Source of the DNA: Escherichia phage vB_EcoS_SCS31
Sequence record: ON081052
Strand: one strand, 5' to 3'
Length of the DNA stretch: 46,054 nucleotides
A model generated the notes under the pieces. It saw only the letters and a program-made list of their open reading frames with translations. It was not told the DNA's origin and did not search any database. The translations under genes and the position numbers were made by a program. Positions 24,116-46,054 of the stretch are shown in pieces (the stretch's first letter is position 1; every line of letters starts with the position of its first letter).

Positions 24116-24145
24116 TAAAGCCCCTGAATAGGGGCTTTTCTTTTA
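24116..24145. terminator. bidirectional terminator between convergent genes
   Basis: AAAGCCCCTGAATAGGGGCTTTTCTTTT. Confidence 0.6.
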
Positions 24146-25105
24146 GTACATGTTTGGTATGTATGGAACTGCCATTGATATGTTTGTATCTAAATGGAAA
24201 TGTGCGCCAGTCCGTGTTGAATAGTTTCCAATTACACTACCAAACCCAGACCTGACAGATCCATTAGACATTACGACCCCTTTGTATCTAAGGTTGTTAT
24301 ACCCGCCAGTTACTCGAGTCGTAGCTCCAGTCCTGAGTATCGGGAAGTATCCGCCACCTATCGACTGATATCCATTGCTTATTTGTATAAATCCACTAAG
24401 TACGAATGGTCGCCTAACGCTTGAAAAAACAATCTGACCAGAGCTATTTGACATTGTTAGTCCTGGTCCGGCTGGTGGGGGTTCATTTCTGAATATCACC
24501 AGCTGAACATAAGTACTTGCCGAAACATCATCTGTACCTCCGTAGGTTATATCCCTGCACCATATTGTTGATCCATCTGATTCAAGTGATACGTTTGGAT
24601 TATCCCACTTGCCGAATGGTATGCCGCTAACTGGTAGCGATGCCGCCCCGTTAACCTGTATGCCTCCAACCCATGCTGCTGACATTAGTCTCGAGTTGCT
24701 TGATATAGCAAGGAAATCAGTTGAGTTCTCAACGAGTATCCCTGGGCTTGATGAAGGTGATGCTGGTAGAATTTCAAAACAATTACCCGCAAAGTCAATT
24801 ATTCGACCATTGGCACCATTGAAGTTACTAAGTGTTATCCTGCCAACTCCGTCATTAACCTTTTGGAATCCGTTCATGTAATAAACTTCAGGTATAACAT
24901 CGTAAGCATCAACGTGGACTGCCTTCGTTGGTAGGCAGAAAGCCGTAGAGCCAGGAGACATTGTCAATCCAAAATCCCACGAACTTGCTGGGGTTGAAAG
25001 TCCATTGGTATTTATTGATCCAGTCACAGCAGGTGCCCTTAATCCTGCCGTTATTTCCATCGCTGGTCTTCCGTCATTGAGGTCAATCAATATACCCTGC
25101 GGCAT
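24143..25105 (-). CDS. beta-rich Gly/Ser/Asn-rich protein, possible receptor-binding/tail-associated protein (320 aa)
   Basis: ATG 25105 with RBS AAGGAG, start overlaps lipoprotein stop (TAATG coupling); composition only. Confidence 0.4.
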   Translation of the reverse strand: MPQGILIDLNDGRPAMEITAGLRAPAVTGSINTNGLSTPASSWDFGLTMSPGSTAFCLPTKAVHVDAYDVIPEVYYMNGFQKVNDGVGRITLSNFNGANGRIIDFAGNCFEILPASPSSSPGILVENSTDFLAISSNSRLMSAAWVGGIQVNGAASLPVSGIPFGKWDNPNVSLESDGSTIWCRDITYGGTDDVSASTYVQLVIFRNEPPPAGPGLTMSNSSGQIVFSSVRRPFVLSGFIQISNGYQSIGGGYFPILRTGATTRVTGGYNNLRYKGVVMSNGSVRSGFGSVIGNYSTRTGAHFHLDTNISMAVPYIPNMY

Positions 25106-25356
25106 TATTTCCACTCCTTGCTGCCATGATCTGCAATAGAGCCACCGTAACCGCCGCCAGCCTTGCTTTCAATTCCGGCGTAGCGAACATCAACCTCACC
25201 AGCCGGAACAACTACGCCACCTTTCCATTTAGCTACGCACACACCATTTGCTTGTGTTGCACACCAACCATCCGGGCGAGGACCAGATGAGCAACCTACC
25301 ATCATGATTGCTGCTGCGGCGATGATTGAAAGTTTGATTAATTTAGTCATTTTCAT
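25105..25356 (-). CDS. outer-membrane lipoprotein, Cor/Llp-like superinfection-exclusion candidate
   Basis: N-terminus [25 protein letters not shown]: signal peptide plus lipobox Cys; small size; adjacent to tail fibre region. Confidence 0.5.
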
Positions 25357-25384
25357 GTTCCTTAGAATGTGTGTTTCGTTTTGA

Positions 25385-25436
25385 TGGAGTAATCATATCT
25401 TAACTGTTAGGTTTGTCTTTAGCTATTCGTGCTATT
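25385..25436 (-). promoter_or_regulatory. phage promoter, palindromic motif class (minus strand)
   Basis: Reverse complement reads AATAGCACGAATAGCTAAAG ... TATGATTAC ... CATCAAAACGAAAC. Confidence 0.45.
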
Positions 25437-25679
25437 CAACCATCTGTTATATTTATCCCTCTCCTTGATTGCCTTTTCAAGTGACTTGAATCTTAAAAGT
25501 AGCGGCATACAGTCAACACCCATAATTAAGGATTCGTCGCAGCTATTTGCGCCAGTCAGCCAAAGAGAGAAGTATTGTTGATCGAGGCCGTAGTTCCTGT
25601 CTTTATTGACCCTAACGCTAACAACTTTAAATTTTAAACCAGCCAACTTAACCTTATCTATAAATTCTGACTTATTCAT
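25419..25679 (-). CDS. hypothetical small protein (start trimmed from track ORF)
   Basis: Track ORF N-terminus overlaps promoter copy at 25737; internal ATG 25679 with RBS GGAGCAA. Confidence 0.35.
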   Translation of the reverse strand: MNKSEFIDKVKLAGLKFKVVSVRVNKDRNYGLDQQYFSLWLTGANSCDESLIMGVDCMPLLLRFKSLEKAIKERDKYNRWLNSTNS

Positions 25680-25699
25680 CTTGTTGCTCCTTTTTAGTT

Positions 25700-25753
25700 T
25701 ACCTGGAAATGGTACATCACCCATGAGATTTGTCTTTAGCAATTAGTGCTATT
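25700..25753 (-). promoter_or_regulatory. phage promoter, palindromic motif class (minus strand)
   Basis: Reverse complement reads AATAGCACTAATTGCTAAAG. Confidence 0.45.
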
Positions 25754-26225
25754 GGTTACGCGTAACCGATGTAACTCGATGTATACCATATCCATCCGCG
25801 GGAAATCAGTTACGCCATATTGCGCACAGTTACGCTTTAGTTACACTAAAATATCTATATATATAAAGGGTTTAGATAATTATTATTATTATCTATATAT
25901 ATAGTGTAACTGCTGCAACTCATAATATTGGTATGTTGCGTTTGTTTTTCTATATGATGATTATCTTTGTTATCTGGCGTGGCTAAATGGATGTAGGGTG
26001 TGGTGCACCACATAAAAGATACCGTTACATTGGTTACATGTGAGTTACATTGAGGATTTATGCGGTCTGCGGTGGCTAAAAACGTAACAAAGGAGAGCCT
26101 ATACATGAAATTACGTCATTTGACGCGTAATCATAATTTATTAATCGGTGATATCTATTGGACTGCGCTGCCACCCTCTCATATGATCAACCCATCGAAA
26201 GCAAACAACCATAGAGAGACGCAAA

Positions 26226-26420
26226 ATGGCTTACTTCATCATTAAAGAGAAAAACAACGCACTATTCGGCGACTGCTACTTCGGAGGTGAGGCAGGTTAC
26301 ACTACAGATAAGAATGAGGCAGACCGATTTGAAACGAAGGAAGATGCCAAATCTGTCCTGACCGGATACTTCACAGAAGAAGATTTTAAATTGGTTAAGA
26401 TTGTTAAGGTTAAGGAGTGA
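26226..26420 (+). CDS. hypothetical protein (64 aa)
   Basis: ORF track. Confidence 0.35.
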   Translation: MAYFIIKEKNNALFGDCYFGGEAGYTTDKNEADRFETKEDAKSVLTGYFTEEDFKLVKIVKVKE

Positions 26421-26423
26421 ATC

Positions 26424-26621
26424 ATGAAGGCTTTTATAGACATAAATAAGTCACCATACAACGACGAACCGGATCCTGAGGTAAGAATAAGGATAAAATT
26501 TAAAACTGGAAGAGAGATAAACATAACAACAACATGCTCTGGTATATCAAAAGCGATAATGGGATGCAGTGAAATCCCTGTAGATGTATCACTTAGAAAT
26601 GTAGAGGTTAAAATAAAATGA
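26424..26621 (+). CDS. hypothetical protein (65 aa)
   Basis: ORF track; ATGA overlap with next gene. Confidence 0.35.
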   Translation: MKAFIDINKSPYNDEPDPEVRIRIKFKTGREINITTTCSGISKAIMGCSEIPVDVSLRNVEVKIK

Positions 26622-27583
26622 GCTTTAAAGTTTTTACTCGAGAAGAGCTAAGCAATGAGTCTTACCACTCCGAGACCGACCACATCTCAGGCTCCTCACT
26701 TGTCGAGATTATCCAGGGATCCCCAGCCAAGTGGAAGTTTAAGCAGCGCAACAATGATAGCAAGGCCCTTAAGTTTGGAACGCTGAGTCACAGTATGATC
26801 CTTGAAGGTGACATGTTTGATAAAGAATACCTTCGCGCAACCGACCTTGACGCGATTGAAGGCCTAATTACAAGCCAGACAGGATTATCAGCAGCACTCA
26901 AAAAGGTTGGCGTGGCTGGAACGTCTGGGAAGGCCTATAGCGAGCTTGTGGAGATGATGTATCGATATTCTGAGGACTGGCCTGTTAAGTGGCTAATTGA
27001 ACAGCAGGAGAGCGCGCAGGCGATTGCGGAGGGTAAGGAGCTAGTTAGCGCAGCAGACTATGACAAAGTGGTAGCGATGCGCGAGGTTCTTTGCAACATT
27101 CCGGCGTATAATGCGATTGTGAATAGCGAGACGGCGCAGAAAGAGCTATCAATCTTTGGTGAGATTCTCGGGGTTGGCGTGAAGATTCGAATTGACCACG
27201 TTGATGTTATTGATGGAGTAGTTCGGATCACAGATTATAAAACGACAGCGGACGCAAGCCCGGAAGGATTCGGCAAATCGGCATTCTCGCACGGATACCT
27301 TGCAAAAATGGCGCTTCAGCGAGATCTGTTTGTGAAGGCATTTAACGAGAAGCGAAAAGTTGTTGTTGGATTGCTGGCGCAGGAGAAAGTAGAACCATAC
27401 CTTCCAATGCTGTACACCCTAACTGACGAACAGCTACGAATTGGTCGTCTTCAGTATCTTGAAGCGCTTGCCACATACAAGAAGTGTAAAGAGCTAGATA
27501 TCTGGCCTGGTTACTCGAATGGCATTACGGAGCAAGAGCTGATTATTCCTGAGTGGGCTATTAAACAATATAGAGAGATATAA
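26618..27583 (+). CDS. PD-(D/E)XK-type exonuclease (RecE/Cas4-like, putative)
   Basis: Motif IDHVDVIDGVVRITDYKT resembles the D...D-x-K nuclease core; sits upstream of annealing protein and SSB. Confidence 0.55.
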   Translation: MSFKVFTREELSNESYHSETDHISGSSLVEIIQGSPAKWKFKQRNNDSKALKFGTLSHSMILEGDMFDKEYLRATDLDAIEGLITSQTGLSAALKKVGVAGTSGKAYSELVEMMYRYSEDWPVKWLIEQQESAQAIAEGKELVSAADYDKVVAMREVLCNIPAYNAIVNSETAQKELSIFGEILGVGVKIRIDHVDVIDGVVRITDYKTTADASPEGFGKSAFSHGYLAKMALQRDLFVKAFNEKRKVVVGLLAQEKVEPYLPMLYTLTDEQLRIGRLQYLEALATYKKCKELDIWPGYSNGITEQELIIPEWAIKQYREI

Positions 27584-27655
27584 AATGAACAAATCGCTAA
27601 AAAAACTGGGATGACTTAGGTATAGTTATCCAATCAACAACGAACGAGGTTAAAG

Positions 27656-28306
27656 ATGCAAATTTCAGAATCATGCAAATCAATTTTAAAAGCGCTACAC
27701 ACTGCAAAATCGCTATTTGCGAAGGCTGAAAAGTCCAAGCAGAACTCTCACCTTAAAAATAAGTACGCCACACTTGAAGACGTACTGGCGGCTGTTGAGC
27801 CAGGACTTGATGAGTGCGGGCTGGTGATGTTACAGAGCGTGCTTGATGATGATCAAACTAATCTGCTAAAGGTTGAGACAAAGCTATTTCACGCAGAATC
27901 TGGGGAGTGGGTTAGCTTCTTAATGATTGTCCCAATCAGCAAGAATGATGCTCAAGGTTACGGCTCAGCGCTTACATACGCTCGACGCTACGGAATCACA
28001 GCAGCTTTAGGTCTTAGCCAGACAGATGATGATGGAAATCTTGCAGCTAAGGGTGTTAAAGACTTCAAGCGAGAACTTGAGAAGTGCAGCACTATTGATG
28101 AGCTTCGCAATGTTTGGAAGGAAGCTAAGCAATCACTAGACGCTGCAGGATGGAAGGTTTTCGAGCCACACATCATAGAGCGCAAGGCAGAGATTGAATC
28201 AAATGCGATGACTGGCTTCAACCCAGCAACACCAAAGAAAGTAGCAGAAAAAAGTAGTCCTGAAGAAAAGATTGAAGTAGAATCACAACAAATCGACACA
28301 TTCTAA
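27656..28306 (+). CDS. single-strand annealing protein (ERF-like, putative)
   Basis: Position between exonuclease and SSB; size 216 aa. Confidence 0.45.
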   Translation: MQISESCKSILKALHTAKSLFAKAEKSKQNSHLKNKYATLEDVLAAVEPGLDECGLVMLQSVLDDDQTNLLKVETKLFHAESGEWVSFLMIVPISKNDAQGYGSALTYARRYGITAALGLSQTDDDGNLAAKGVKDFKRELEKCSTIDELRNVWKEAKQSLDAAGWKVFEPHIIERKAEIESNAMTGFNPATPKKVAEKSSPEEKIEVESQQIDTF

Positions 28307-28353
28307 ATTTAACTTGGCTGCGGCCCCAACATAAAACGAGAAGAGATAAAAAC

Positions 28354-28815
28354 ATGCATGTAATTACTGGTCAGATTCGCCGCGCTCCATTCACTAAAGA
28401 AGGTCGCAACGCTAACGGTAACTGGAAAATGTTCGCCATCGAGATGAGCGAATCATACAAGACTAAAGATGGCGAGCGTAAGTACAGTAATTACCGGATT
28501 ACGATGTTTGCCAGTGAGGCGCAGATTAGTTGGTATGATGAAGCATTTCAGGAAGGAAAAGTTATTTCTGTTAGTGGTGATTCATTGGCGGTTAATGAGC
28601 GTGAGCATAATGGAAAGGTTTATATTACGCTTGAGTTGCAGAATCCTCGATTGATGTTTAGCCAGCGCGGCAGTGAATTAGCTACACAGCAACAGCGCCA
28701 GCAGCATCAGCAACAGCAGCGGCAGCAACCACAGCATCAAAGCCAGTTTGAAGACGATATTCCGTTTGCTCCTATTGGTCTTCAGTACGGTATGTCAAAT
28801 ATTTATGTACTATAA
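28354..28815 (+). CDS. ssb: single-stranded DNA-binding protein
   Basis: Gln-rich linker and C-terminal acidic tail ending DDIPF-like (FEDDIPFAPIG), a hallmark of SSB. Confidence 0.65.
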   Translation: MHVITGQIRRAPFTKEGRNANGNWKMFAIEMSESYKTKDGERKYSNYRITMFASEAQISWYDEAFQEGKVISVSGDSLAVNEREHNGKVYITLELQNPRLMFSQRGSELATQQQRQQHQQQQRQQPQHQSQFEDDIPFAPIGLQYGMSNIYVL

Positions 28816-29215
28816 AGTCTGTTTCAAATGTGGTGGGCTTAAGCCCATCACGGAGTTCTATAAACATAAAGCCATGGCTGACGGACGTGTAAATAAGTGT
28901 AATGAATGCAATAATGTTGATGTTAAATCAAATAGAAAATCAAAAATAGAATATTACAGAGAGTACGATAGAGAAAGGGGCAATAGACAGAAGGATGGTT
29001 ACGTTAAGGAGTATAGATCAAGAAACCCCATAAAATATAATTGCCACACGATTTTAAATAACGCTATAAGGGATGGTAAGATCAATAAAAAACCTTGCGA
29101 GGTTTGCGGGAATGATAAGGCGGTAGCTCATCATGATGATTACTCAAAACCAATGGATGTAAGATGGCTATGCCAAGCTCACCATATGCAATGGCACGCA
29201 GAAAACGGAGAATGA
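28748..29215 (+). CDS. HNH endonuclease (putative; start probably internal)
   Basis: C-terminal CEVCG ... HHDDYSKP ... WLCQAHHMQWH zinc-finger/HNH motif. Confidence 0.55.
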   Translation: MKTIFRLLLLVFSTVCQIFMYYKVCFKCGGLKPITEFYKHKAMADGRVNKCNECNNVDVKSNRKSKIEYYREYDRERGNRQKDGYVKEYRSRNPIKYNCHTILNNAIRDGKINKKPCEVCGNDKAVAHHDDYSKPMDVRWLCQAHHMQWHAENGE

Positions 29216-29232
29216 TTAAACGGATAAAAGAT

Positions 29233-29257
29233 AAGGCCCCCTTCGGGGCCTTTTTTA
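29233..29257. terminator. bidirectional terminator
   Basis: AAGGCCCCCTTCGGGGCC + T6. Confidence 0.6.
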
Positions 29258-32074
29258 CGAAGCTGTATTTACCTGAAGATATGCACCATTAGTTGCACCA
29301 AACCATGCGTAAGCAGATCCGTAAGTTGTTGGGTTGTCATTTAAAATGAAATCACCCGCTCTAATTACGCACTTTGCTCCATATGTATCAGTGGGTCTTG
29401 CACTAAACCCATAGTCAACATATCTAAAACCAACCTTCGTTACGTTATCGTTAAGCGGGAAGATCCTTAAGAAGCTGGAATCTCTAAAGTCATTGTTCCT
29501 GAAAATTCCTCCTGTAAAGTTATCCATATCAAACATTGTTGTTAAACTTGAAGCAACAGTATTCATGAACTTGTTGCCTTCATATGTCGGAGCTACTACT
29601 TCATAGCCAACTCTTAGCTGAACAAATCCCCCATCAATAATATTGTCCTTGACTATTGGATATTGCCCGCCGATTGCTAAGCCACCAAACCCAGGTGTAA
29701 ATTTGCAACTATTATTACTAAATATAGTGCCAACCCACGCCTGATTTGTAAGGTATGGTGCCTTAGTGTCTGTCATGGTGTTCCCGGTGATAATCAATCC
29801 ATTCTTGGCCTGGATTCCCTCCTGGTAGCCCTGAATCGCTACGCCGCCACCAATCATAATGTTGCTGGATATAATAATGTTGCTCAACCCCTCATTAACA
29901 CCCCAATCACTTTCTGCATCATTTGTTATCAGTAAGTAGTGAGAAGAAGCCCTGCCAGTAGCGTCCGTAGTTATAATGCTTGTATTGCCTTTGCATATAA
30001 CATTGTTTGCCGCAAAAACCTCAACAAACATACCAGCACCTTCGTAGTAGTTATCCGTAACCGTTACGTTATTGCCAGCCGGGGTTATCCTTGACTGGAT
30101 AGATATTGGATAATAGAACTTGTTGGCGTGAGCGTAAGACCTTCGGCTTCCCTCGGATATTGCATAATCCTCCGCGAAAGTATGCCATGCCCTTCCTGAC
30201 TGTTTTGTTGTGTTTCCTATAAACTCTGAGTAGTCACAGTTTCTTGTGATTAAGCAGTAGTTAGCGTTGTATCTGAAGCTTGAATTTCTAAGAGATACGA
30301 ATGCATTAGGTAAGCCATTAAGAGCATCGGCATTAACAAAGGCCCTCGAGGCATTAACCTCCATACCCTCGATCACAACTGATGCGCATCCTTCAACCAT
30401 AAAACCAAACCAGTCTTCTCTTGGTTTATGCTCTGTATCCGTTGGTTGGATTGAGTAATCTGAAAAGTCAGTATTCCAGTTGAGTCCGCTAGCTTTAAAT
30501 GTGCAATATTTAAGCCCGAAAACAACCCTCTCGGGTGATGTGCTTCCAGAGATATCAATATCAACATCATTATTGGCAAAAATGTCAACAGTAAGTCCAT
30601 TGAGGAAGAATGCCGTTTGCCTTAACACTCTGTACTTATCATTGTACTGAACACCATCGGAGAATGAGACTTTCAGTCTTCCAGCGCTAATTCTTACCTT
30701 CCTGTTTGTATTGTGACCAAGGTTTATACATGCCATAACCGAGGCGTTTGATTCATTAACTCCAGACACATCATGACCAGCCCATTCGGTATGGATATCA
30801 TCAACACCTCCCGTAAACCTAACCCAGCAACCATTTTTACCTGGTGATGTCTCACCCGCTCCGCTAAGGAATCCTGGGAGCGTGGAATATGTACCATCAA
30901 ATGGAACTGTTGGGCTAAAGATGGTAACCCCATTGTGACTACTCTTGCTTACTGATGGATCCCAGTAAAACAAACCACCTCCAGAGTTTGCTCCAGAAAT
31001 ATAAGACCTGACATTTGCCAAGTTTCCATTCGTAGTTGGTTGCCGGATTAGTTCATAAATTGAATTAACTGAAGATAGCCCTAAATTACTCCTGGCAAGG
31101 CTTTTATCTTCAATATCAGAGAAATTCAATGATTTGTTGAAAGTCTCAGATTTTGAATAAACATCAAGTAAGCCCCTTACTCGCTGGGCGCTAGCTCCGC
31201 CAACCTGACTTCCTGATGCGACATAAAGCGCCTCTCTTGAATAGTAAGTTTTGCTTGGTGCCGTGCCAGTCTGAGTTAAATCAATCACCCTGTACGCATT
31301 ATCTGAGCCGGTAGATGCTGAAACTTGTATGTTCTTAACACCAGTAAGCCCCCTTGCTGACTTAACCTCAATCGTACAAAGTGTGCTATCGGAGTAGGTT
31401 GTATTTATCACCTCTGGAGCGTTGATCATTGCTGACTTTTGGCATAGGTATCTAGCCCCGGACTTGAAATCAAACGTATTCCAGTCAAGTTCTGTCAACT
31501 GAGGTGTATTCGAGCCACCAATACCAATATTGGCAAGAGTTACCAAAGTACCAGCGTCACCAGCATTATTAATTGCTGCAATTGTAGCGTCACGGGCAGC
31601 TGTTGTTGTGTTTCTTGCACTAACAGCAGTAGCAGCGCTATCTGCGGCGGCAATCTGGCTAGCTAAAGCATCCGCTGCTCCTTGCACTGACTGGCTTGCC
31701 AATTGCTCAAAGCGAGGCCAATCAAAAGAATCCTGACCAATGAAATCAATCAGGCTCTGAATGCTAGTTTCCCTACTCTGATAATAACGCAGAGTCTCTG
31801 CAACATTCTGAGCCAAACCCTGAACGGTAATCCCATCGTGAGCAAGGATCGCATAACCAGTTCCGGCAGGAACAGTTTCAGAGTTAGGGTTGTAAACATT
31901 CAATCTGGTATCGCTGATAATTTCTGAGATGGTGTAAATCTGTACTGGTTCAGTTTTAAATACGATGGTTGCACCAACTCTGATCAGTGTAAGTGGCATG
32001 CTCCATGTCGTCCCAACGCCAGTTACCTCGCCATTTGCAGCTAGTGAAGCTGTTCCAAGATCATAAATTGCCAT
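29255..32074 (-). CDS. tail fibre / tailspike-like protein, possible depolymerase (approx 939 aa)
   Basis: Ala-rich helical segment (AADSAATAVSARNTTTAARDATIAAINNAG) then long Gly/Asn/Thr-rich region suggestive of beta-helix; ATG 32074 with RBS GGAGAC. Confidence 0.65.
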   Translation of the reverse strand: MAIYDLGTASLAANGEVTGVGTTWSMPLTLIRVGATIVFKTEPVQIYTISEIISDTRLNVYNPNSETVPAGTGYAILAHDGITVQGLAQNVAETLRYYQSRETSIQSLIDFIGQDSFDWPRFEQLASQSVQGAADALASQIAAADSAATAVSARNTTTAARDATIAAINNAGDAGTLVTLANIGIGGSNTPQLTELDWNTFDFKSGARYLCQKSAMINAPEVINTTYSDSTLCTIEVKSARGLTGVKNIQVSASTGSDNAYRVIDLTQTGTAPSKTYYSREALYVASGSQVGGASAQRVRGLLDVYSKSETFNKSLNFSDIEDKSLARSNLGLSSVNSIYELIRQPTTNGNLANVRSYISGANSGGGLFYWDPSVSKSSHNGVTIFSPTVPFDGTYSTLPGFLSGAGETSPGKNGCWVRFTGGVDDIHTEWAGHDVSGVNESNASVMACINLGHNTNRKVRISAGRLKVSFSDGVQYNDKYRVLRQTAFFLNGLTVDIFANNDVDIDISGSTSPERVVFGLKYCTFKASGLNWNTDFSDYSIQPTDTEHKPREDWFGFMVEGCASVVIEGMEVNASRAFVNADALNGLPNAFVSLRNSSFRYNANYCLITRNCDYSEFIGNTTKQSGRAWHTFAEDYAISEGSRRSYAHANKFYYPISIQSRITPAGNNVTVTDNYYEGAGMFVEVFAANNVICKGNTSIITTDATGRASSHYLLITNDAESDWGVNEGLSNIIISSNIMIGGGVAIQGYQEGIQAKNGLIITGNTMTDTKAPYLTNQAWVGTIFSNNSCKFTPGFGGLAIGGQYPIVKDNIIDGGFVQLRVGYEVVAPTYEGNKFMNTVASSLTTMFDMDNFTGGIFRNNDFRDSSFLRIFPLNDNVTKVGFRYVDYGFSARPTDTYGAKCVIRAGDFILNDNPTTYGSAYAWFGATNGAYLQVNTAS

Positions 32075-32096
32075 TATGTAAAGTCTCCATTTGTAA

Positions 32097-32116
32097 AATA
32101 GCACGAATTGCTAAGT
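32097..32116. promoter_or_regulatory. palindromic motif copy (AAATAGCACGAATTGCTAAG), orientation ambiguous
   Basis: Lies between primase terminator and tailspike start on minus strand. Confidence 0.4.
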
Positions 32117-32139
32117 TGGATTGTAGCATCTTTCAGGCA

Positions 32140-32162
32140 TAAAAAAACCTCCCTAAGGAGGT
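32140..32162 (-). terminator. rho-independent terminator (minus strand)
   Basis: Hairpin CCTCCCTAAGGAGG with T-run on minus strand after primase stop. Confidence 0.55.
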
Positions 32163-33088
32163 TAGTTAGTCAATAAATCGCTTGCCTTGTATATTCGCTT
32201 CCTGATGCCGCTCTTGAATGAGTATTCATCATTTGGTATTACCACGTCAATGTTCCTGTCATCCGCAACGCAAAGCAACTCCCTGTCAAGACGAGTACAA
32301 GCGACCCTTAATTTGAAATCCTTTAGCGCGTAAGCAACCATTTCCATGTTGTAACTGGAGTGGCAAACAAGTACACAGCTGTTACCAGTAGCAAGATGAA
32401 CGTGAACACCATCAATCCAATTATCGGCAAGATAAGCATACTCACTATCCTTAAAGGCACCAATAACAGCAATAGACTGGCGAGTATAATCTTTTGCAGC
32501 ATAACCAACGCCTCCATCTTCATTGATAAACATTACATTGCACATATCATCTGATATGCCATCATTATAAGCCATAAAGCACGGTATTGCGTGTATTAGT
32601 TCGCCTGATCTTGTCCTGCCAACATCAAAACCAAACTCGCTATAGATACCCTCGTATATACTGAGTGGAGTTGATTCTACTCTTTCAGTCCTTTCCATTA
32701 TCTCTAAGCATCTTTCGTGGTCAATCTGAGCACCCATTTTGTAGAGTGATGTTCTTGATGATTGCTTGTTTGCTTTAGTTACAACCTCAACAGGAATTAG
32801 GTTCAACCACTCACCGAGAACGTCGATACATTCACTGAATGACTCCCCTCTCATCTTCTGTAACCACAGAATTCCATCGCCTGAGCCACACTGGTTGCAG
32901 ATAATGCCGCCATCACCTTCTTCGCTAACCTTGTTAGTCCAGCGGCCACGGTCGTTGCCGCCGCAATATATACATGGCTGATGCTTTTTGGTCTGGAAGA
33001 ATTTTGGGTCTGCGCCGCAAATCTGAACCATTGCGTCAGCCCATAAACCTTTCATCTTTTGTAGTACTTCTTTCTTATCGTGATTCAT
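32162..33088 (-). CDS. DNA primase (zinc-ribbon + TOPRIM-like, putative)
   Basis: CIYCGG ... CNQCGSGDG zinc-binding pairs near N-terminus; ATG 33088 with RBS GGAGGTG. Confidence 0.55.
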   Translation of the reverse strand: MNHDKKEVLQKMKGLWADAMVQICGADPKFFQTKKHQPCIYCGGNDRGRWTNKVSEEGDGGIICNQCGSGDGILWLQKMRGESFSECIDVLGEWLNLIPVEVVTKANKQSSRTSLYKMGAQIDHERCLEIMERTERVESTPLSIYEGIYSEFGFDVGRTRSGELIHAIPCFMAYNDGISDDMCNVMFINEDGGVGYAAKDYTRQSIAVIGAFKDSEYAYLADNWIDGVHVHLATGNSCVLVCHSSYNMEMVAYALKDFKLRVACTRLDRELLCVADDRNIDVVIPNDEYSFKSGIRKRIYKASDLLTN

Positions 33089-33143
33089 ATGCACCTCCAT
33101 AAACAATAAAGGCACCATACATAATGTAGAGTGCCAATGTTTA

Positions 33144-33650
33144 TCAAATCGTGCTTTTTTTCTCTGCTTCTCTCTTTTTCTTATTCTCTTCTTTAATCTT
33201 ACGCCATGATCTGGCAGGCGGCTTTGTTGCTAACTCCTCTTTCTTAACAACTCTAAGCATTTCTCGACGGTCACAACGCAATGTTAAAGGCTTACCATTA
33301 CTATCAAATCGAAGGTCTGGACGAATGAAGCTAGCTCGATAACCCTCGCCTGTACGCTTGTACTTACCGTGTAATTTCTGCGCACCTTTAGCTGAAATCA
33401 TTCCGCGTTTACACCATTCAGAAACTACTGCATGTGTCACATTAGCGGCTTTTGCTAGCTTCGATTTACCACCATAAAAATCAAGAACAATCTCTAGCCG
33501 CGCGCGTAGCCCGGCTCTTACTTCATCTTTTAAAACATAGTAGCCTGAAGGTCGTTTGCGTTCTTTCTTGTCTTCGGTGCGATGTGTTCCGTTATTACCG
33601 TTTAATGTTCGCTTGTCAACTGCACCAGTTGATGCCGCAATTCTCGTCAT
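33144..33650 (-). CDS. HTH DNA-binding protein (Cro/YdaS-like, putative regulator)
   Basis: Segment GGKSKLAKAANVTHAVVSEWCKRGMISAKGAQKL resembles a helix-turn-helix; basic Lys/Arg-rich C-terminus. Confidence 0.4.
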   Translation of the reverse strand: MTRIAASTGAVDKRTLNGNNGTHRTEDKKERKRPSGYYVLKDEVRAGLRARLEIVLDFYGGKSKLAKAANVTHAVVSEWCKRGMISAKGAQKLHGKYKRTGEGYRASFIRPDLRFDSNGKPLTLRCDRREMLRVVKKEELATKPPARSWRKIKEENKKKREAEKKSTI

Positions 33651-39764: not shown

Positions 39765-40238
39765 ATGATTTACGTATTTGATATCGATGGAACTATAGCT
39801 AATAATGAACATAGAAGTCACCTCTTGCCATACAGTGACCTTCACTTGACTTCAAGTTGGAAGGATTACAATAAAGCCTGTTCTGGAGACTCACCAATAA
39901 TCCCAATGATAAACATGATGAACAAACTTGCGGAATTATGTCAGGTTTACATTATGACCTCCAGAAGTGATGAAGTTGAATGGAGAACACTTGAGTGGCT
40001 TCAGGATAATGAGGTTGAGTATGATTCGATATACATGAGAAGTCGACATGACAACCGAAAAGATTACAAAATAAAAGAGGAATGGCTTAATGAAATCAGT
40101 GGTGGCGATAAAAGCAATGTGGTTATTTTTGAAGATAACCCACAAGTAATTAAGCACCTAAGGAGTTGCGGATACACCGTTATGGCCGTATGTGAATATG
40201 AAGAACTACCTAAAGATTGCGAATCTCACGGAGAATGA
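39765..40238 (+). CDS. HAD-superfamily phosphatase / nucleotidase (putative)
   Basis: N-terminal FDIDGTIA (DxDGT) motif typical of HAD phosphatases. Confidence 0.5.
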   Translation: MIYVFDIDGTIANNEHRSHLLPYSDLHLTSSWKDYNKACSGDSPIIPMINMMNKLAELCQVYIMTSRSDEVEWRTLEWLQDNEVEYDSIYMRSRHDNRKDYKIKEEWLNEISGGDKSNVVIFEDNPQVIKHLRSCGYTVMAVCEYEELPKDCESHGE

Positions 40239-40795
40239 AAATGACTAAATTATTTATCCTTAATGGCCCCGCTGGAGTTGGTAAGGATACTATAGCGGAT
40301 ATCATGGTTGAGACTGGTGTCGCCAAAGAAAAGGTATCATTCAAGTCACCAATGTTTAACGTTGCTAGAGGTATTCTTTCAATAGATGAATTCGATTGGT
40401 TTATTGAAAACTACAACAATCGCGACGAGAAGGAGAAACATCAGAAAATTCTAGGTGGAAAAAGCATTCGAGAGTTCATGATCTGGATTAGCGAGTCTGT
40501 AATGAAGCCAGTCTTTGGTGATGATGTTTTTGGTAAAAGGCTCGCCCAGTCACTTAGTGATGGTTGCTACATTTGCGCTGACGGTGGATTTGCTAGCGAG
40601 ATTAAGCCACTGATCGACGCTGGTGTTGAGGTCACGTTAATCAGATTGCATAGGGCGGGGCACACATTTGATGGCGATAGTCGCTCATACATTCACGGGG
40701 TGTGCGCAAGAGAAATTGATGTTCGTGTTGTTGGTGGTGATATTGATGGAACATCAGCATTGGTAAGGCACGTAATAAATAGCACTAATTGCTAA
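40235..40795 (+). CDS. P-loop kinase, dNMP-kinase-like (putative)
   Basis: Walker A GPAGVGKDT near N-terminus; stop lies in promoter copy. Confidence 0.55.
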   Translation: MKMTKLFILNGPAGVGKDTIADIMVETGVAKEKVSFKSPMFNVARGILSIDEFDWFIENYNNRDEKEKHQKILGGKSIREFMIWISESVMKPVFGDDVFGKRLAQSLSDGCYICADGGFASEIKPLIDAGVEVTLIRLHRAGHTFDGDSRSYIHGVCAREIDVRVVGGDIDGTSALVRHVINSTNC

Positions 40796-40826
40796 AGATA
40801 ATAATAAAAACTGAGTTATCATTAAC
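40778..40826 (+). promoter_or_regulatory. phage promoter, palindromic motif class
   Basis: AATAGCACTAATTGCTAAAG ... GTTATCATTAAC ... CATCGAAACGAGA. Confidence 0.45.
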
Positions 40827-40863
40827 ACATCGAAACGAGATGAAACAAACGAGGAAACACAAG

Positions 40864-41040
40864 ATGACTAAAATGATTTATTGCACCAAGAACAACTCCA
40901 AGACGCTTCCATTTACAGTTAACCAGCCGTACAATGCAGAGTATCAGGGTGACGGATATTACAAGATTTACGGAGACGATATGACGTGGATTTTAGCACC
41001 GATTGATGGTTCGCTTGTTGAATTTATTATCGCAGAATAG
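40864..41040 (+). CDS. hypothetical small protein
   Basis: ATG 40864 after conserved leader. Confidence 0.3.
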   Translation: MTKMIYCTKNNSKTLPFTVNQPYNAEYQGDGYYKIYGDDMTWILAPIDGSLVEFIIAE

Positions 41041-41169
41041 CGCATCTAAAACATAGCTTTACAAGTGGGGGCCTTTTGGCTCCCTTTTTTTTGCTTCTTT
41101 TCCGAACAGGGCTACTGTATCATGTTTACACTAACTTAAACATTGACAAATAGACAAATGGAGGATCAC

Positions 41170-41385
41170 ATGAGGGAAGTAATCAACGCCGCTACGGCGT
41201 CAACTGGAGGGGCAGCGGTAACTGGAGCGGCAACTGGTCAGATGACTATAGCAATAATCAGCCTTATCGCTTTAATCATTTTTGGTGCGTGGGGTGCTTA
41301 CTGGAAGTTTAAGGATAGCCAGGCGATTCGGCGCGCTCTTGAATCAGGAGACTTAAAAACAGCAATCAAGATAAGGAGTAAGTAA
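41170..41385 (+). CDS. holin (putative)
   Basis: Small protein with hydrophobic segment MTIAIISLIALIIFGAWGAYW and charged C-terminus; directly upstream of endolysin. Confidence 0.45.
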   Translation: MREVINAATASTGGAAVTGAATGQMTIAIISLIALIIFGAWGAYWKFKDSQAIRRALESGDLKTAIKIRSK

Positions 41386-41871
41386 ATGAAGCAGAAGCTG
41401 CTAATTAGCGCGGCTACGGCTACGGCAATATACATCGCAGCACCGCTTATTGAGCTCGTAGAGGGTGTGGAAAACAAGCCTTACATGGACATTGCTGGAA
41501 TCCCTACTGTTTGCTCTGGCGTTACTGGCCCTGACGTTGTTTGGGGTAAGACCTACAGCAACAGGGAATGCCGGAACTTACTGGAGAAGCACATTCAGAT
41601 TCATGCCAGGCATGTTCAGAATGCAGTTACCTACCCAATCGCACCTCAGACAAGAGCGGCTTTAATCAGCTTTAGCTACAACGTTGGTGGAAATGCGATG
41701 AGGAATTCAACGGCAGTTCGACTTATTAATCAGGGTAAAGTTGAGCAGGGTTGCAATGCTCTCGGGATGTGGAATAAGGCTCGGGTTAACGGAAAGCTAA
41801 AGGTAGTTAAAGGCCTGGTTAACAGGAGAAACGAGGAGATTAAGTTATGCTTAAGTGGATTGCAGCGTTAG
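41386..41871 (+). CDS. SAR endolysin (lysozyme-like)
   Basis: N-terminal weakly hydrophobic signal-anchor-release-like segment, then E...D...T lysozyme-like region (ELVEGVENKPYMDIAGIPTVCSGVTG). Confidence 0.7.
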   Translation: MKQKLLISAATATAIYIAAPLIELVEGVENKPYMDIAGIPTVCSGVTGPDVVWGKTYSNRECRNLLEKHIQIHARHVQNAVTYPIAPQTRAALISFSYNVGGNAMRNSTAVRLINQGKVEQGCNALGMWNKARVNGKLKVVKGLVNRRNEEIKLCLSGLQR

Positions 41872-42236
41872 TAATGTGCATGGCTTTATCTGGATGCTCA
41901 GCAACTGAAGTCCTGACCGGATTGATTGGAAGTAAACCAGATGTCACTGCGCAGGTTGGAGCGGCTAACAATAAAGTCGGCGTTGGTGCTTCCGTTAGTA
42001 GCGACTCCAGCAATTCCAGTGAAGCCACTGTAAGGGATTCTAAGGTTGGGAGCCTGGATAGCTCAAGCAGAAAAAAGACCTCCGACAATTCAATTAAGGC
42101 ATCAACAATCACTGCCGAAAAGATTGAGATTACAAACAATGAATCATCATCACTACCGTGGATTGGTACTGGCGTTATGTTCTGCCTGGTTCTTATTCTT
42201 CTGGCAATTATCTTAAGACGTAAAAAAGCCCCTTAA
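41847..42236 (+). CDS. unimolecular spanin (T1 gp11-like)
   Basis: N-terminal lipoprotein signal with lipobox LSGC and a C-terminal transmembrane segment (VMFCLVLILLAIIL) in one 129-aa protein. Confidence 0.6.
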   Translation: MLKWIAALVMCMALSGCSATEVLTGLIGSKPDVTAQVGAANNKVGVGASVSSDSSNSSEATVRDSKVGSLDSSSRKKTSDNSIKASTITAEKIEITNNESSSLPWIGTGVMFCLVLILLAIILRRKKAP

Positions 42237-42252
42237 TAGGGGCTATATTTTT
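42222..42252. terminator. bidirectional terminator between lysis genes and minus-strand genes
   Basis: AAAAAAGCCCCTTAATAGGGGCTATATTTTT. Confidence 0.55.
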
Positions 42253-42586
42253 AGCTAAATAACTCGTCGTCAGTCATGTTTCCTATGTTCATCATTTCCT
42301 TTATGTACTTACTATCATAACCGTTCAGTGCTTCGAAGTTAAACTCAAAAGGCCTCTTCAAACTCCCTCTACTAACAAACTCACCACACTTACCATCAAT
42401 ATATCCTGAGCTTAACATCTTTGCGCAGAACTCCTTTGAAGCTGCACTGCAAAACTTCCGATGTGGCAAACCTGCCGCCTTGCTAAACCTCTCTGAATCT
42501 TTGTGCTTGTATATGAATCGCGCCAAATGCTGGCGCGTAAAATAACTGTAGGACTCGCAAAATCTGTATAAATCAAGAAGAAACAT
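42251..42586 (-). CDS. hypothetical protein (111 aa)
   Basis: ORF track; downstream of 42590-44173 on minus strand. Confidence 0.3.
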   Translation of the reverse strand: MFLLDLYRFCESYSYFTRQHLARFIYKHKDSERFSKAAGLPHRKFCSAASKEFCAKMLSSGYIDGKCGEFVSRGSLKRPFEFNFEALNGYDSKYIKEMMNIGNMTDDELFS

Positions 42587-42589
42587 AAA

Positions 42590-44173
42590 TCACCCCATTA
42601 CACGTGGATTAACATAAACACGGTCATCAATCATGCAAACGTAGTTACGTTCTTCAAGCATTGGGATTAAGTGGTCCTTAATCTTCGTCATTACACCGGC
42701 CTGAGATTCGAATGGCTTAACCTTTCTTGCTGACTCATACAGCGCGCGAAGGCTAACAAAACCTTTACCAGCCTTACCCATTTTCAAAGCCAGGTCGATA
42801 AGTTTATTCATCTCTGCGTTATCACCAGCATGACCTGCGGCATTAGCAGAAGATAAATATGTTTTGCTTAACTCGTTAAACATTAATACCGCCTCCTGCA
42901 TGGTTTCTAATTCAATCTCACGAGACTTTTTAGGATTGCCACCTTCTTCAGATACCCAATTGCGAACAGTATGAATAACCGAAGCTATACGGATTGCCTG
43001 CTTGTCAAATTTACCAAGTGCGCCTCGTAACATAGTGTGACTGTATTTACCTCCATCACGTAAGTGCGGTTCCATATCCTGGCGAGCACGGTTTAGATAA
43101 CGCATGGCTGAATCACTAATAGTTAGCTTAACATCCACCTCACTCATGATGTTGTGAATAAGTTTAAAGTAAGTCGCCTTAAGCGCTCCATCAATAGGTT
43201 CATAAGTTGAGCGACCTTCATCATCAACAAAAACACGTTCACCTAAGAATGATTTCTCACGAACAAGCAAAAAACGCTCTGATACACCGATACCGCGAGC
43301 ACCAGCATTCATGATTGCGTTGATTGTCTCATCTTGTGCAATTACAGAGATGCAACCCAGCGCAGTAAAAGACATGTTGTTTTCAGCGTTAGCACGAGCA
43401 ATAGAAACATCGCCAGAGTCCCATGCCTTAAGAACCAATTCACTGTTTGTCTTTTTGCTCCCGTCGCCATAAGTCATGCCTAATAATGAGTTTACAGAAG
43501 TTGCTTCATCAGATATTACAGCAAAGTTACCTTGACGGAAGTTAATTCGCGCAAGACCTTCTGGAGTTGTATCAGATACCGGAAAAACAACATCGCATAA
43601 CTTCTCTAACTTCTCCTCAAGATTCTCTTTATCCTCAAATAATCTCGCCATTTCAGAAGGTGATTGCTCCTGCTTCATTTCTTTAGCGAGAGAAGATAGT
43701 TTTGCCATAATCTTTTTTCGTTCACGCTTACGTTCCTCGTTGATTCTGTCTCGTTCAGCAATCATTGGCGCAGTTGCCAGGCTGTTAATTGCTGATTTAC
43801 CAGTTGAAGGAGGTTGGCTTGTAACAACATAAAGCGCGGTTGGCTGAGTTGTTCCGTGATACTCAACGGTAAAACGACCCAGCATTGCAGAAGATACGCA
43901 GCCTAAAAAGTGCATATAGGCAGAAGATGATGGGAACTGTACTGATCGGGCGATGTTGGCTGACAGCTTGCCTACCACATCAAAATCATTCCCGAGGCTT
44001 ATTACAGGATATTTATCATTGCAATTCTCAACCTCTACTGGGTCCTTCCAGAATGACTGAGCATATCGCATACCGTTCGCTTTAATTGCCACACGAAGCG
44101 GGGAGATGCCTTGCTGCTGCGCAATAGCCATAACCTGGTCAACACTCAACTTACTGGATTCGAACTCAAACAT
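42590..44173 (-). CDS. P-loop NTPase-like large early protein, function unresolved
   Basis: Walker A-like PPSTGKS and Walker B-like AVISDEATS; ATG 44173 with RBS GGAG. Confidence 0.4.
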   Translation of the reverse strand: MFEFESSKLSVDQVMAIAQQQGISPLRVAIKANGMRYAQSFWKDPVEVENCNDKYPVISLGNDFDVVGKLSANIARSVQFPSSSAYMHFLGCVSSAMLGRFTVEYHGTTQPTALYVVTSQPPSTGKSAINSLATAPMIAERDRINEERKRERKKIMAKLSSLAKEMKQEQSPSEMARLFEDKENLEEKLEKLCDVVFPVSDTTPEGLARINFRQGNFAVISDEATSVNSLLGMTYGDGSKKTNSELVLKAWDSGDVSIARANAENNMSFTALGCISVIAQDETINAIMNAGARGIGVSERFLLVREKSFLGERVFVDDEGRSTYEPIDGALKATYFKLIHNIMSEVDVKLTISDSAMRYLNRARQDMEPHLRDGGKYSHTMLRGALGKFDKQAIRIASVIHTVRNWVSEEGGNPKKSREIELETMQEAVLMFNELSKTYLSSANAAGHAGDNAEMNKLIDLALKMGKAGKGFVSLRALYESARKVKPFESQAGVMTKIKDHLIPMLEERNYVCMIDDRVYVNPRVMG

Positions 44174-44244
44174 CTTAATGCTCCATCTCGTTAATGTGCG
44201 GGTATTATATAACACCCGCTCAGTATGTCTTTATCTTTTAGTGC

Positions 44245-44598
44245 TTATTTGTATTGCGCCTCGAATTTGTAAGTCTCGCAGAGCGTCTTGAAGCCAACTT
44301 CCTCATCTCGGTAAAGCTGCCAGGCATTGCCTTCTTTGTCATAGATGTAACCAGCATTTTGGCCCAGGCCAGCGTGCATGTTTACCTGATATCTCTTTCC
44401 TTCCGCGAACACTTTAGAGACGCCACTCTTATGGTTAACCTTTGTGCAATACAGAGTCTTGGTCTTGATGTATTTGCCGCGCTCTGTAAGGTTCTTCCAT
44501 TTTCCATTAACCTTGATTTGCTCTACACCATCTTTAACGCGAGCCTTGAACAAATCGTTATCGCTTGAAACCCAGTGTTTTGTAATCGTAGTAGTCAT
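44245..44598 (-). CDS. hypothetical protein
   Basis: ATG 44598 with RBS GAGAGGG. Confidence 0.3.
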   Translation of the reverse strand: MTTTITKHWVSSDNDLFKARVKDGVEQIKVNGKWKNLTERGKYIKTKTLYCTKVNHKSGVSKVFAEGKRYQVNMHAGLGQNAGYIYDKEGNAWQLYRDEEVGFKTLCETYKFEAQYK

Positions 44599-44777
44599 TT
44601 TAAGCCCTCTCTTTCGTTTTCCACATAAATTTGTTTGGTACTGATTTGCGAACGATTCGCACAACAATCTTATCTGTCTTTTGCACTAAGCCGTAAATCT
44701 TGCCGTCAAGTGATGAGCGGTATACTGCCTCTTCCATCTCGTCGTAAAAGTTGTCGAACATTTCTCATCTCCCGTCT

Positions 44778-44832
44778 CGATGGAAAGATAATGCCGTATC
44801 TCACATAAATGCTTTTAGCAATTCGTGCTATT
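44778..44832 (-). promoter_or_regulatory. phage promoter, palindromic motif class (minus strand)
   Basis: Reverse complement reads AATAGCACGAATTGCTAAAAG ... CATTATC ... ATCGAGACGGGAGATG. Confidence 0.45.
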
Positions 44833-44975
44833 GCGCGCCTTTTGTATCGCCTTAAGCATAATCTCATGACTCTCAAGCAAGTCCTCGCGGAACCAGTCGC
44901 CGCAAGGCCAGCCCTTTCCGCTGTATGCGCTGATGACCTCGAGATCGAAATAATTTATCTCAGATGGTAGTAGCA

Positions 44976-45218
44976 TCATTTCACCTCATCAAAAGTTGCA
45001 ATCCCAGGAATAAACATTCCAACCTTCCAGCCTGCAATGGCAATCCATCCAGAATCGTGCTTGTGCGGTCGATCAGCGCCTTTAATTAACCACTCGTTCG
45101 GGATTGTCTTGCCGTTAATGATTAGAGGCTCAGCGTCGTATACAGAGCCTTTTACGAATGGTGTTAAGGCTTTCTTGTCAGTGCTATTGATAACGTTAGT
45201 GCAGATTATTTTAGTCAT
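44976..45218 (-). CDS. hypothetical early protein (80 aa)
   Basis: ORF track. Confidence 0.3.
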   Translation of the reverse strand: MTKIICTNVINSTDKKALTPFVKGSVYDAEPLIINGKTIPNEWLIKGADRPHKHDSGWIAIAGWKVGMFIPGIATFDEVK

Positions 45219-45402
45219 TTACAACCTCGTACTCACCTTTATAAACAGCGACCTCTTCATTCACATTGTTGACAATCACTGCTAAACAAAGAGCACCCAA
45301 ATATTTTACCACTTCGTACTCGCAGCCAAGCGTCAGACCATAGTCCTCACATGAACGTCCACTGCAATCTAAATCTTCGAATTTAACTAACTTAATTTTC
45401 AT
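45211..45402 (-). CDS. hypothetical early protein (63 aa)
   Basis: ORF track. Confidence 0.3.
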   Translation of the reverse strand: MKIKLVKFEDLDCSGRSCEDYGLTLGCEYEVVKYLGALCLAVIVNNVNEEVAVYKGEYEVVND

Positions 45403-45959
45403 ATCTCAATCCTCAAATAAATGGCAAGCATTCGACGCAGCCAAGCCCATCACAGCACATGAATTCATCTTCTGACTGGAACTGCTTTGCTAAATCAATG
45501 TCTAGCCTTCCGCGCAACACAAGGTCGGTGTAATCTTCATTAAGCCCAATCAGTGCGCACTCGTTACGTAACTCATCTTTATTCTTTTTCATTTATCCTG
45601 GCCTTTTAAATTATGACGCTCTCTCAGAACTTCAACCCATTCTTGCGCGTCATTCTCTCTCATGAAGAAACTTAACTTTGGGTACTTGTGAAACCCTTTA
45701 AGTTCAACTATCCAATGGCCACCTTCGTAACTATAACTAACTTTCTTCTCTGTCATTTTGTTACCTTTTGAGTTTTTTTTGTTATCGACATCTCTTCAAC
45801 GTACTCGCTACAACTCGGGATTTTACTCCCGGCCCGGCATCCTAACAAAAGGACCCGCTCGGCGCTTTGGTGGGTGAGGTAACGCTTCCTCACATTGCGC
45901 GGTATCATTTACCCTTTTTAGTCCCTTTCGGGAGTGACTCAGAGTCTGCTACCGTGTCG

Positions 45960-46015
45960 ATGAAATGAAGTATACGCACATCGATTCAATATGTCTTTAG
46001 CAAAAAGTGCTATTT
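45960..46015 (-). promoter_or_regulatory. phage promoter, palindromic motif class (minus strand), heading a long leader
   Basis: Reverse complement reads AAATAGCACTTTTTGCTAAAG. Confidence 0.4.
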
Positions 46016-46054
46016 ATCAGATTACCCAGAACCACTGGTATCATAAAGGCATTA

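Follow-up and report, generated by a model that had tools for sequence, protein, structure and literature searches.

A duplicated array of lineage-specific short repeats around an AT-rich core is a candidate replication origin of T1-like phages

We describe an intergenic module of short repeats flanking an AT-rich core that occurs twice in the genome of a T1-like phage, at 25754-26050 and, as a twin, at 138-402. Its architecture suggests a replication origin of the short-iteron, AT-core type, a reading that we hold with moderate confidence; among such origins it would stand out by its duplication and its four repeat clusters. The window, that is, the whole stretch of 46,054 bases analysed here, comes from a member of the Drexlerviridae and is called ACG-M12 in the comparisons below. 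Published reports, in which neither an origin nor iterons were found, state the origin of T1-like phages as unidentified (PMC11447400, PMC7718038), and our search of the literature found no description of this module.

Results

Anatomy of the repeat module

The window differs from the deposited vB_EcoS_ACG-M12 genome (NC_019404; Drexlerviridae, Braunvirinae, Guelphvirus) by 3,058 substitutions, with identical coordinates. None of these falls in 25000-26000, 1-3000 or 40000-46054, so both modules are native phage sequence. Copy 2 (25754-26050) is intergenic, with gp39 on the minus strand to one side and small ORFs preceding recE on the plus strand to the other. As the sequence-only reading of this DNA had it, the region parts the minus-strand genes at 24143-25679 from the plus-strand recE block.

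The pentamer GTTAC/GTAAC is found 11 times in 25754-26090, against 0.80 expected (Poisson probability 1e-9), and in 5000 first-order Markov simulations of the region the count never exceeded 7. Alignment of the repeat sites gave the 8-bp consensus RGTTACRY, which occurs 30 times genome-wide as compared with 8.2 +/- 3.0 in shuffles; 15 of the 30 lie inside the two modules, which together make up about 1.3% of the genome.

Both copies are assembled from the same parts in the same order (Table 1): a distal-left cluster with a palindrome, a short conserved box, four tandem units, the core, inverted units and a distal array. The core is about 45-52 bp long (52 bp in copy 2) and has two TATATATA blocks around (ATT)n; TATATATA is confined to the two modules in the ACG-M12, T1 and Rtp genomes. 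One or two inverted units follow the core, and about 100 bp further on comes the distal array of two to three direct units. In copy 2 the distal-right array pairs with the distal-left cluster as an inverted repeat (I4, 93% complementary), and a second inverted repeat, I14, pairs AGTTACACTA with TAGTGTAACT, 53 nt apart.

Every element listed in the sequence-only reading was confirmed, with one position corrected. The palindrome is present at 25754-25767; the tandem repeats noted near 25808-25845 consist of AGTTACGC at 25808-25815 and 25828-25835 and AGTTACAC at 25839-25846; and the block described as (ATT)n-TATATAT consists of (ATT)4, TATCTATATATATA and GTGTAACT at 25877-25911. The three GTTACAT repeats also exist, at 26024-26030, 26033-26039 and 26044-26050; they had been assigned to 26043-26071, a range that takes in only the third.

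Perfect 14-bp palindromes are not rare by themselves, with 5 found genome-wide and 2.8 expected; the GTTAC-N2-GTAAC arrangement of the copy 2 palindrome is seen again in copy 1, at 139-150. Distal-left clusters with lineage-specific words are present at the same position in relatives, and the copy 1 equivalent is 138-151. Segments akin to the conserved box (CCGCGGAAAAT or CGTAAATTT..CATTTTTT) occupy the same position in the modules of Rtp, T1-like, TLS-like and Webervirus phages, and the proximal-left arrays of Rtp and T1 match that of ACG-M12. A further 14-bp perfect palindrome, TGTGGTGCACCACA, lies at 25999-26012, immediately upstream of the distal-right array.

An Rfam search of 25500-26300 returned no match at E <= 1. 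The module contains no DnaA box, IHF site or GATC, and copy 1 has a single DnaA match, with one mismatch; for a self-loading helicase these absences are neutral. GC skew tracks gene orientation only.

Table 1. Positions of the module parts, promoter elements and candidate genes in the window
Feature	Position	Strand	Remarks
Copy 2, distal-left cluster	25754..25776	.	palindrome GGTTAC-GC-GTAACC, GGTTACGCGTAACC, at 25754-25767; third unit AGTTACAT on minus strand
Copy 2, conserved box	25795..25806	+	TCCGCGGGAAAT; between distal and proximal repeats
Copy 2, proximal-left array	25808..25848	+	four tandem 9-11-bp units: AGTTACGCCAT, ATTGCGCAC, AGTTACGCTTT, AGTTACACTAA
Copy 2, AT-rich core	25852..25903	.	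TATCTATATATATA twice (25852-25865, 25890-25903) flanking TTTAGATA and (ATT)4; candidate DNA-unwinding element
Copy 2, proximal-right units	25904..25919	-	AGTTACAC inverted, then degenerate unit GTTGCAG
Copy 2, distal-right array	26024..26050	+	GTTACAT three times, spaced 9 and 11 bp
Copy 1	138..402	.	palindrome 138-151; four 10-bp units 181-220; AT core 229-272; inverted units 272-288; distal direct units 377-402
DR-type promoter element, copy 2 left flank	25735..25752	-	ATAGCACTAATTGCTAAA; points left to gp39; outside module
Candidate promoter for gp37, gp36, recE	26159..26187	+	TGGACT-17-TATGAT; outside module
Strong canonical promoter for gp78	457..485	+	TTGTCT-17-TATAGT; outside copy 1
DR-type promoter element, copy 1 left flank	45996..46013	-	leftward operon gp01 to gp10, including helicase
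DR element copies	1306, 2116, 2747, 5966, 13125, 17152, 18846, 25418(-), 25735(-), 32098
DR element copies, continued	33140(-), 33663, 36163, 37204, 39122, 39691, 40779, 44814(-), 45996(-)
gp09, DUF3987 MCM-like helicase	42590..44173	-	predicted C-terminal winged helix, residues ~451-521; PF13148 and AlphaFold model
gp78, DUF7174	528..1025	+	weak winged-helix-like fold in model
Primase gp30 and gp29	32162..33650	-	gp30, primase-helicase zinc ribbon; gp29, Cro/YdaS-type helix-turn-helix; replication-associated

A twin module and the stability of the cores

Copy 1 spans the conventional start of the genome (~130-405) and is colinear with copy 2 when the two are aligned, which bears out the earlier description of the latter as the second copy of a common module. 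It has 8 GTTAC/GTAAC in 130-405, and two inverted proximal-right units at 272-288 as against one clear and one degenerate unit in copy 2.

Duplex stability was scanned by the nearest-neighbour method in 60-bp and 40-bp windows. The core of copy 2 ranks first for instability among the 60-bp segments of the genome and second among the 40-bp segments (z 4.4-5.1), and the core of copy 1 has the complementary rank. In each of four genomes from four lineages (ACG-M12, T1, Rtp and the Klebsiella phage P11, a Webervirus) no other duplex segment is as unstable as the two cores, which have z of 4.4-5.8 versus at most 3.8 for the next segment. We also considered the core as a cruciform or hairpin and rejected it, the potential not being kept between the copies (z -3.7 vs -1.2).

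Conservation of layout and replacement of the repeat word

More than 130 deposited T1-like phage records match the left two-thirds of the copy 2 region at 76-84% identity. For more distant comparisons we took recE homologues, down to 45% identity, as anchors for 80 IMG/VR loci. An AT core is present at all 80, mostly some 300-420 bp upstream of recE and farther away only where small ORFs have been inserted. Across these loci the clusters follow the order distal-left (<), proximal-left (>), AT core, proximal-right (<), distal-right (>). Repeats on the two sides of the core point in opposite directions in every lineage, apart from the Webervirus proximal-right unit, and the distal-right arrays are found, in all lineages, some +140 to +170 relative to the core.

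The repeat word itself is specific to the lineage. It is GTTAC in T1, Rtp, ACG-M12 and the Rogunavirinae, GTAAT, GAACAA and GAAACA (TLS-like) in others, GTAAGAT in Klebsiella Weberviruses, and GGGACA or GGGGAGG elsewhere, and both copies within one genome carry the word of that lineage. The Webervirus palindrome, GTAAGAT-GC-ATCTTAC, has the same 2-bp spacer as the GTTAC palindrome. Retention of the layout while the word is replaced implies co-evolution with a specific DNA-binding protein that would be encoded by the phage. A host-encoded reader is unlikely because the word of TLS, an E. coli phage, differs from that of the E. coli phages T1 and ACG-M12. We had entertained a GntR-type reader, since GTTAC-N2-GTAAC resembles a GntR operator, and dropped it, as the different word of TLS argues for a phage-encoded protein. 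Together these comparisons lend strong support to an origin-like architecture, in keeping with the suggestion of the sequence-only reading that the region possibly holds an origin.

That reading had also raised the question whether the two copies mark the ends of a mobile cassette. This idea is not supported: they hold equivalent positions in four complete genomes from four Drexlerviridae lineages, where they bracket essential structural genes.

In Weberviruses, copy 2 lies between co-directional genes, the 3′ end of the primase and then recE, and recE has a DR promoter of its own. A divergent-promoter role is therefore not the conserved function of the module.

The recE-erf-ssb block and copy 2 are inverted in Weberviruses relative to T1 and ACG-M12 (P11 30245-33943, compared with 26618-33650 of the window). 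The inverted block adjoins the genes for the primase and the helix-turn-helix protein, with no cor-type cassette present; module and recombination genes moved as one unit in this rearrangement.

Promoters lie outside the module

The repeats and AT block of copy 2 had been taken to hold divergent early promoters, and this assignment is not supported. A sigma-70 weight-matrix scan of 25754-26075 gave nothing above genome background: the best scores in 25680-26105 are 7.5-8.2, the genome mean (best per 200 bp) being 7.2 +/- 2.0. Scanning for consensus -35/-10 pairs likewise found sigma-70-like sites to be no more numerous than in shuffles. Promoter-like elements are found outside the module, and the Webervirus arrangement argues in the same direction. 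To the right of copy 2, the element at 26159-26187 presumably serves gp37, gp36 and recE; the DNA downstream of it, CCCATCGAAAGCAA, is similar to leaders found at other promoters of the phage. To the right of copy 1, the promoter of gp78 scores 12.1, the 99th percentile of the genome being 12.2.

The left flank of both copies carries a DR element with the consensus ATAGCAC-N3-TTGnTAAA. About 20 copies are present in the genome, and T1 and Rtp have comparable numbers. In those copies whose downstream DNA was lined up, a TATAGT/TATAAT hexamer appeared exactly 20 nt downstream, which places 22 nt between TTGnTA and the -10 hexamer. This is too long for a normal sigma-70 spacer and looks like a phage-specific promoter class, possibly one that needs a factor; gp29, a helix-turn-helix protein conserved family-wide, is a candidate partner. 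A DR repeat has been described in phage TLS with its function given as unknown (PMC11447400). The likely true start of gp39, to which the copy 2 DR element points, is the ATG at 25679, with an AAGGAG ribosome-binding site.

Candidate binding proteins

DUF3987 proteins are MCM-like (SF6) replicative helicases with a winged helix-turn-helix at the C-terminus, as described by Kazlauskas et al. (PMC4889955). Such a helicase, gp09, is encoded about 2.1 kb from copy 1, which lies upstream of it, and about 17 kb from copy 2, which adjoins recE. An AlphaFold model of gp09, built from 33 sequences (pLDDT 86.6, pTM 0.85), shows a canonical winged helix of the order H-S-H-H-S-wing-S at 451-521. The best PDB matches of the model are MCM subunits, with E from 3e-5; gp09 sequence or profile searches against PDB chains, including the solved chains of Rep, the helicase of the staphylococcal pathogenicity islands (SaPIs) discussed below, gave no matches. 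In distant phages whose DUF3987 helicase is 33-59% identical to gp09, a similar module is found 0.4-1.8 kb upstream of the helicase operon, each with its own word (GGGCGAA, AGGGTAAAA, TGTAAG, TAGGAAAA/TGGGAA or CGTACA). Because distant phages place the module there, copy 1, which heads the helicase operon, is suggested to be in the putative ancestral position. On these grounds gp09 is our leading candidate for initiator and loader.

We then asked which protein residues follow the repeat word. Under a strict test, a class-specific residue had to be invariant in the GTTAC class and absent from every other repeat class. Among about 940 in-group-invariant columns of the 12 families sampled across at least five repeat classes, the test returned a single position, D517 of gp09, at the wing tip; six more strict positions came from two sparsely sampled families. 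No position was returned in recE, erf, ssb, primase, the RadD-like helicase gp28, VRR-NUC, gp20, gp18, gp10 or gp08. With a relaxed test, all five class-specific positions of gp09, D517 included, lie in its last 106 aa; other proteins had 0-5 such positions, scattered. Covariation of gp09 with the repeat word is weak, and its predicted recognition helix differs between T1 and ACG-M12 despite their common word.

An alternative candidate is gp78, a DUF7174 protein with a predicted winged-helix-like fold, whose gene comes first to the right of copy 1 in all lineages in which it was detected. Its best conserved segment (KLKSSYV..SR) is alike in ACG-M12, Rtp and T1 and different in TLS-like and Webervirus lineages; the DUF7174 alignment is too divergent for an IMG/VR search. 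In Weberviruses the counterparts of gp29 and of the primase gp30 abut copy 2. As the reader of the repeats, gp29 (T1 gp23) was rejected: it is 50-67% conserved family-wide, and its recognition helix does not follow the repeat class, being identical in a GTAAT and a GTTAC phage, with no strict class-specific residue. Small proteins common to T1 and ACG-M12 and absent from Webervirus (gp72, gp14 and others) were set aside as well, as they have no DNA-binding signal and their distribution does not fit.

Discussion

Likeness to known origins

The closest parallel is with the SaPI elements. SaPI Rep is an MCM-like self-loading helicase whose C-terminal winged helix binds 6-12 penta- or hexanucleotide iterons (Qiao et al., PMC9371898); these flank an AT-rich centre, no fewer than two on each side and in opposite directions, and their words are element-specific (PMC9371898). 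The architecture of the phage module fits this description in every point: it has 11 (copy 2) and 8 (copy 1) GTTAC units, and in both copies at least two opposed repeats lie on each side of a central AT region. Counted by side, copy 2 has three to four left-proximal units, and on the right one clear and one degenerate proximal unit and three distal ones. The phage also encodes, in gp09, what is predicted to be an MCM-like helicase with a C-terminal winged helix. Its lineage-specific words are clear, and their match to gp09 comes down to five class-specific C-terminal residues. The systems differ in that the SaPI origin is immediately downstream of rep, whereas copy 1 is upstream of the helicase and copy 2 elsewhere; in that the phage has two copies, with extra distal clusters and a palindrome, and is a virulent enterobacterial carrier; and in that gp09 has no detected sequence similarity to the solved Rep chains.

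The ori and crr of P4 are two separated cis elements with common short repeats, bound by the winged-helix domain of the primase-helicase alpha. The phage module likewise consists of two separated cis elements with the same short repeats, and T1-family primases are annotated as related to the N-terminus of P4-type alpha. In P4, primase, helicase and origin binding reside on one polypeptide and crr is not a full copy of ori; the phage, by contrast, has separate proteins and two equivalent copies, both containing an AT core of their own. Iteron plasmid origins (RepE, Pi, RepA) have 17-22-bp iterons with a period of about 22 bp and usually DnaA boxes. The module departs from these and from lambda-type origins, having 8-11-bp units with a period of about 10 bp and being intergenic rather than within an initiator gene. 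The primary origins of T7 and T4, virulent phages without a classical initiator, are AT-rich, easily melted and next to promoters. The module is also AT-rich, easily melted and flanked by promoters, but T7 and T4 origins have no arrays of lineage-specific short repeats.

How the module might work

We infer that replication would start at the module following binding of a protein to its repeats. A phage-encoded winged-helix protein would read the RGTTACRY units, whose clusters flank the core with opposite polarity. The C-terminal domain of gp09 is the most plausible reader, and gp78 might replace or assist it. Two helicase assemblies would thereby be placed facing the 52-bp TATATATA/(ATT)n core, predicted to be the easiest DNA of the genome to melt, and the core would open with the aid of negative supercoiling from promoters firing outward. 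The zinc-ribbon primase gp30 might then prime synthesis, with a host polymerase elongating.

A broader proposal, which we put forward tentatively, is that every Drexlerviridae genome has two equivalent origins, each a four-cluster dyad of lineage-specific repeats around the least stable DNA, read by the MCM-like DUF3987 helicase or a partner winged-helix protein. The word would have been switched repeatedly, as a SaPI-like specificity code, and one of the origins would be permanently linked to the recE/erf block.

Several observations count against an origin. The covariation of gp09 is weak, and its recognition helix differs in T1 and ACG-M12. In Drexlerviridae the helicase gene is not beside the module. 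Two equivalent origins in one genome would be unusual. Copy 2 stays constantly with recE, its core about 350 bp upstream, even through inversion, which fits a role in expression equally well. Finally, TATAAT-like hexamers face inward in the core in many lineages.

Other readings

The hexamers, found at both core edges about 10-12 nt from the nearest repeat, are among the points in favour of a regulatory nucleoprotein site, in which a phage DNA-binding protein such as gp78 would coat the clusters and switch four early operons (gp78 rightward, gp01-gp10 leftward, gp39-41 leftward and gp37-recE rightward) by looping or occlusion, the AT core perhaps holding factor-dependent promoters. In ACG-M12, T1 and Rtp early operons point outward on either side of both copies, the position of copy 2 upstream of recE is fixed in all lineages, and other annotators have assigned in-silico promoters here. 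Beside copy 1 the first gene is always that of DUF7174; its modelled structure is similar to winged-helix DNA binders, and its best conserved segment groups the same-word phages ACG-M12, Rtp and T1 apart from the TLS-like and Webervirus lineages. The repeat clusters, however, do not overlap the best flanking promoters and are 56-110 bp from the right-hand ones, canonical promoter scores inside the module equal genome background, and the Webervirus copy 2 has no leftward operon to control. Such a site would also leave unexplained why the cores are genome-wide stability minima and why the module is paired with the helicase in distant phages. We regard it as less likely than an origin, though as the serious competitor to it.

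A packaging (pac) element, with the small terminase binding arrays around a bendable AT core as at the pac sites of P1 and SPP1, seems quite improbable. It draws on the deposited genome starts, 120-230 bp left of the copy 1 core in T1, Rtp, ACG-M12, SU57 and TLS (based on read coverage for SU57 and on restriction mapping for TLS; PMC7718038), on a small terminase that is P22 gp3-like, and on a core centre, TTAGATTTAT, that faintly resembles the P22 pac word quoted in PMC11447400. Yet some 25 kb separate copy 2 from the mapped packaging start, and the reports consulted describe one pac region (PMC7718038). The DNA at the mapped ends occurs with copy 1 and has no counterpart at copy 2, and in distant phages it is the helicase, not the terminase, that has the module beside it. 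The repeat-bearing DNA to the left of copy 1, which coincides with deposited or mapped genome starts, is for that reason a likelier place for pac. An ordinary AT-rich spacer, with repeats arising from slippage and gene conversion between the copies and no sequence-specific function, would account for the degeneracy of the short units (T-N-AC-R-C in some arrays) and for a cruciform potential that is not kept between the copies. It is hard to reconcile with a four-cluster layout and polarity kept while the word was replaced in at least seven lineages, with the conservation of the left two-thirds of the region or with the strong enrichment of the repeats, and we consider it very improbable, the least credible of these readings.

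Implications and further observations

T1 is a classical coliphage, and its relatives are common as therapy candidates and as fermentation contaminants. The origin question becomes directly testable in these phages once two candidate origins are defined, together with a predicted unwinding core, a repeat word and proteins named as possible binders. If the origin reading is true, the SaPI-type mechanism of a self-loading MCM-like helicase and short iterons would extend from Gram-positive satellites to a large family of virulent enterobacterial phages; the conservation of this intergenic DNA would be explained, and it would offer a handle for engineering or blocking these phages.

The DNA to the left of copy 1 (46014-46054 and 1-130) is specific to that copy and has short repeats of its own: TGATTG/TTGCA in T1 (48780-48836 and 1-120), Rtp and SU57, and GATTTGA in TLS (1-60). 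Both flanks of copy 2 (25419-26621 and homologous positions in relatives) are a hotspot of variable small accessory genes, here gp39 and gp38-36 and in relatives genes for KilA or anti-repressor-like proteins, a 'regulatory protein' or a 'DNA-binding protein'; the distance from core to recE ranges from about 350 to about 1350 bp. The annotated gp38 (26060-26245) and gp37 (26226-26420) overlap in different frames and jointly match the 143-residue phrog_35664 end to end, so that they appear to be a single gene, probably split by a frameshift relative to relatives. Alternatively, gp38 may be spurious, with the promoter-like site of gp37 at 26159-26187 lying inside it.

The substitutions that distinguish the window from ACG-M12 form blocks within 3000-40000, are restricted to certain annotated genes and are not purely synonymous; terL, for example, has 337 nt and 95 aa changes and recE 165 nt and 29 aa. 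No difference from ACG-M12 is seen in intergenic regions or in most hypothetical genes.
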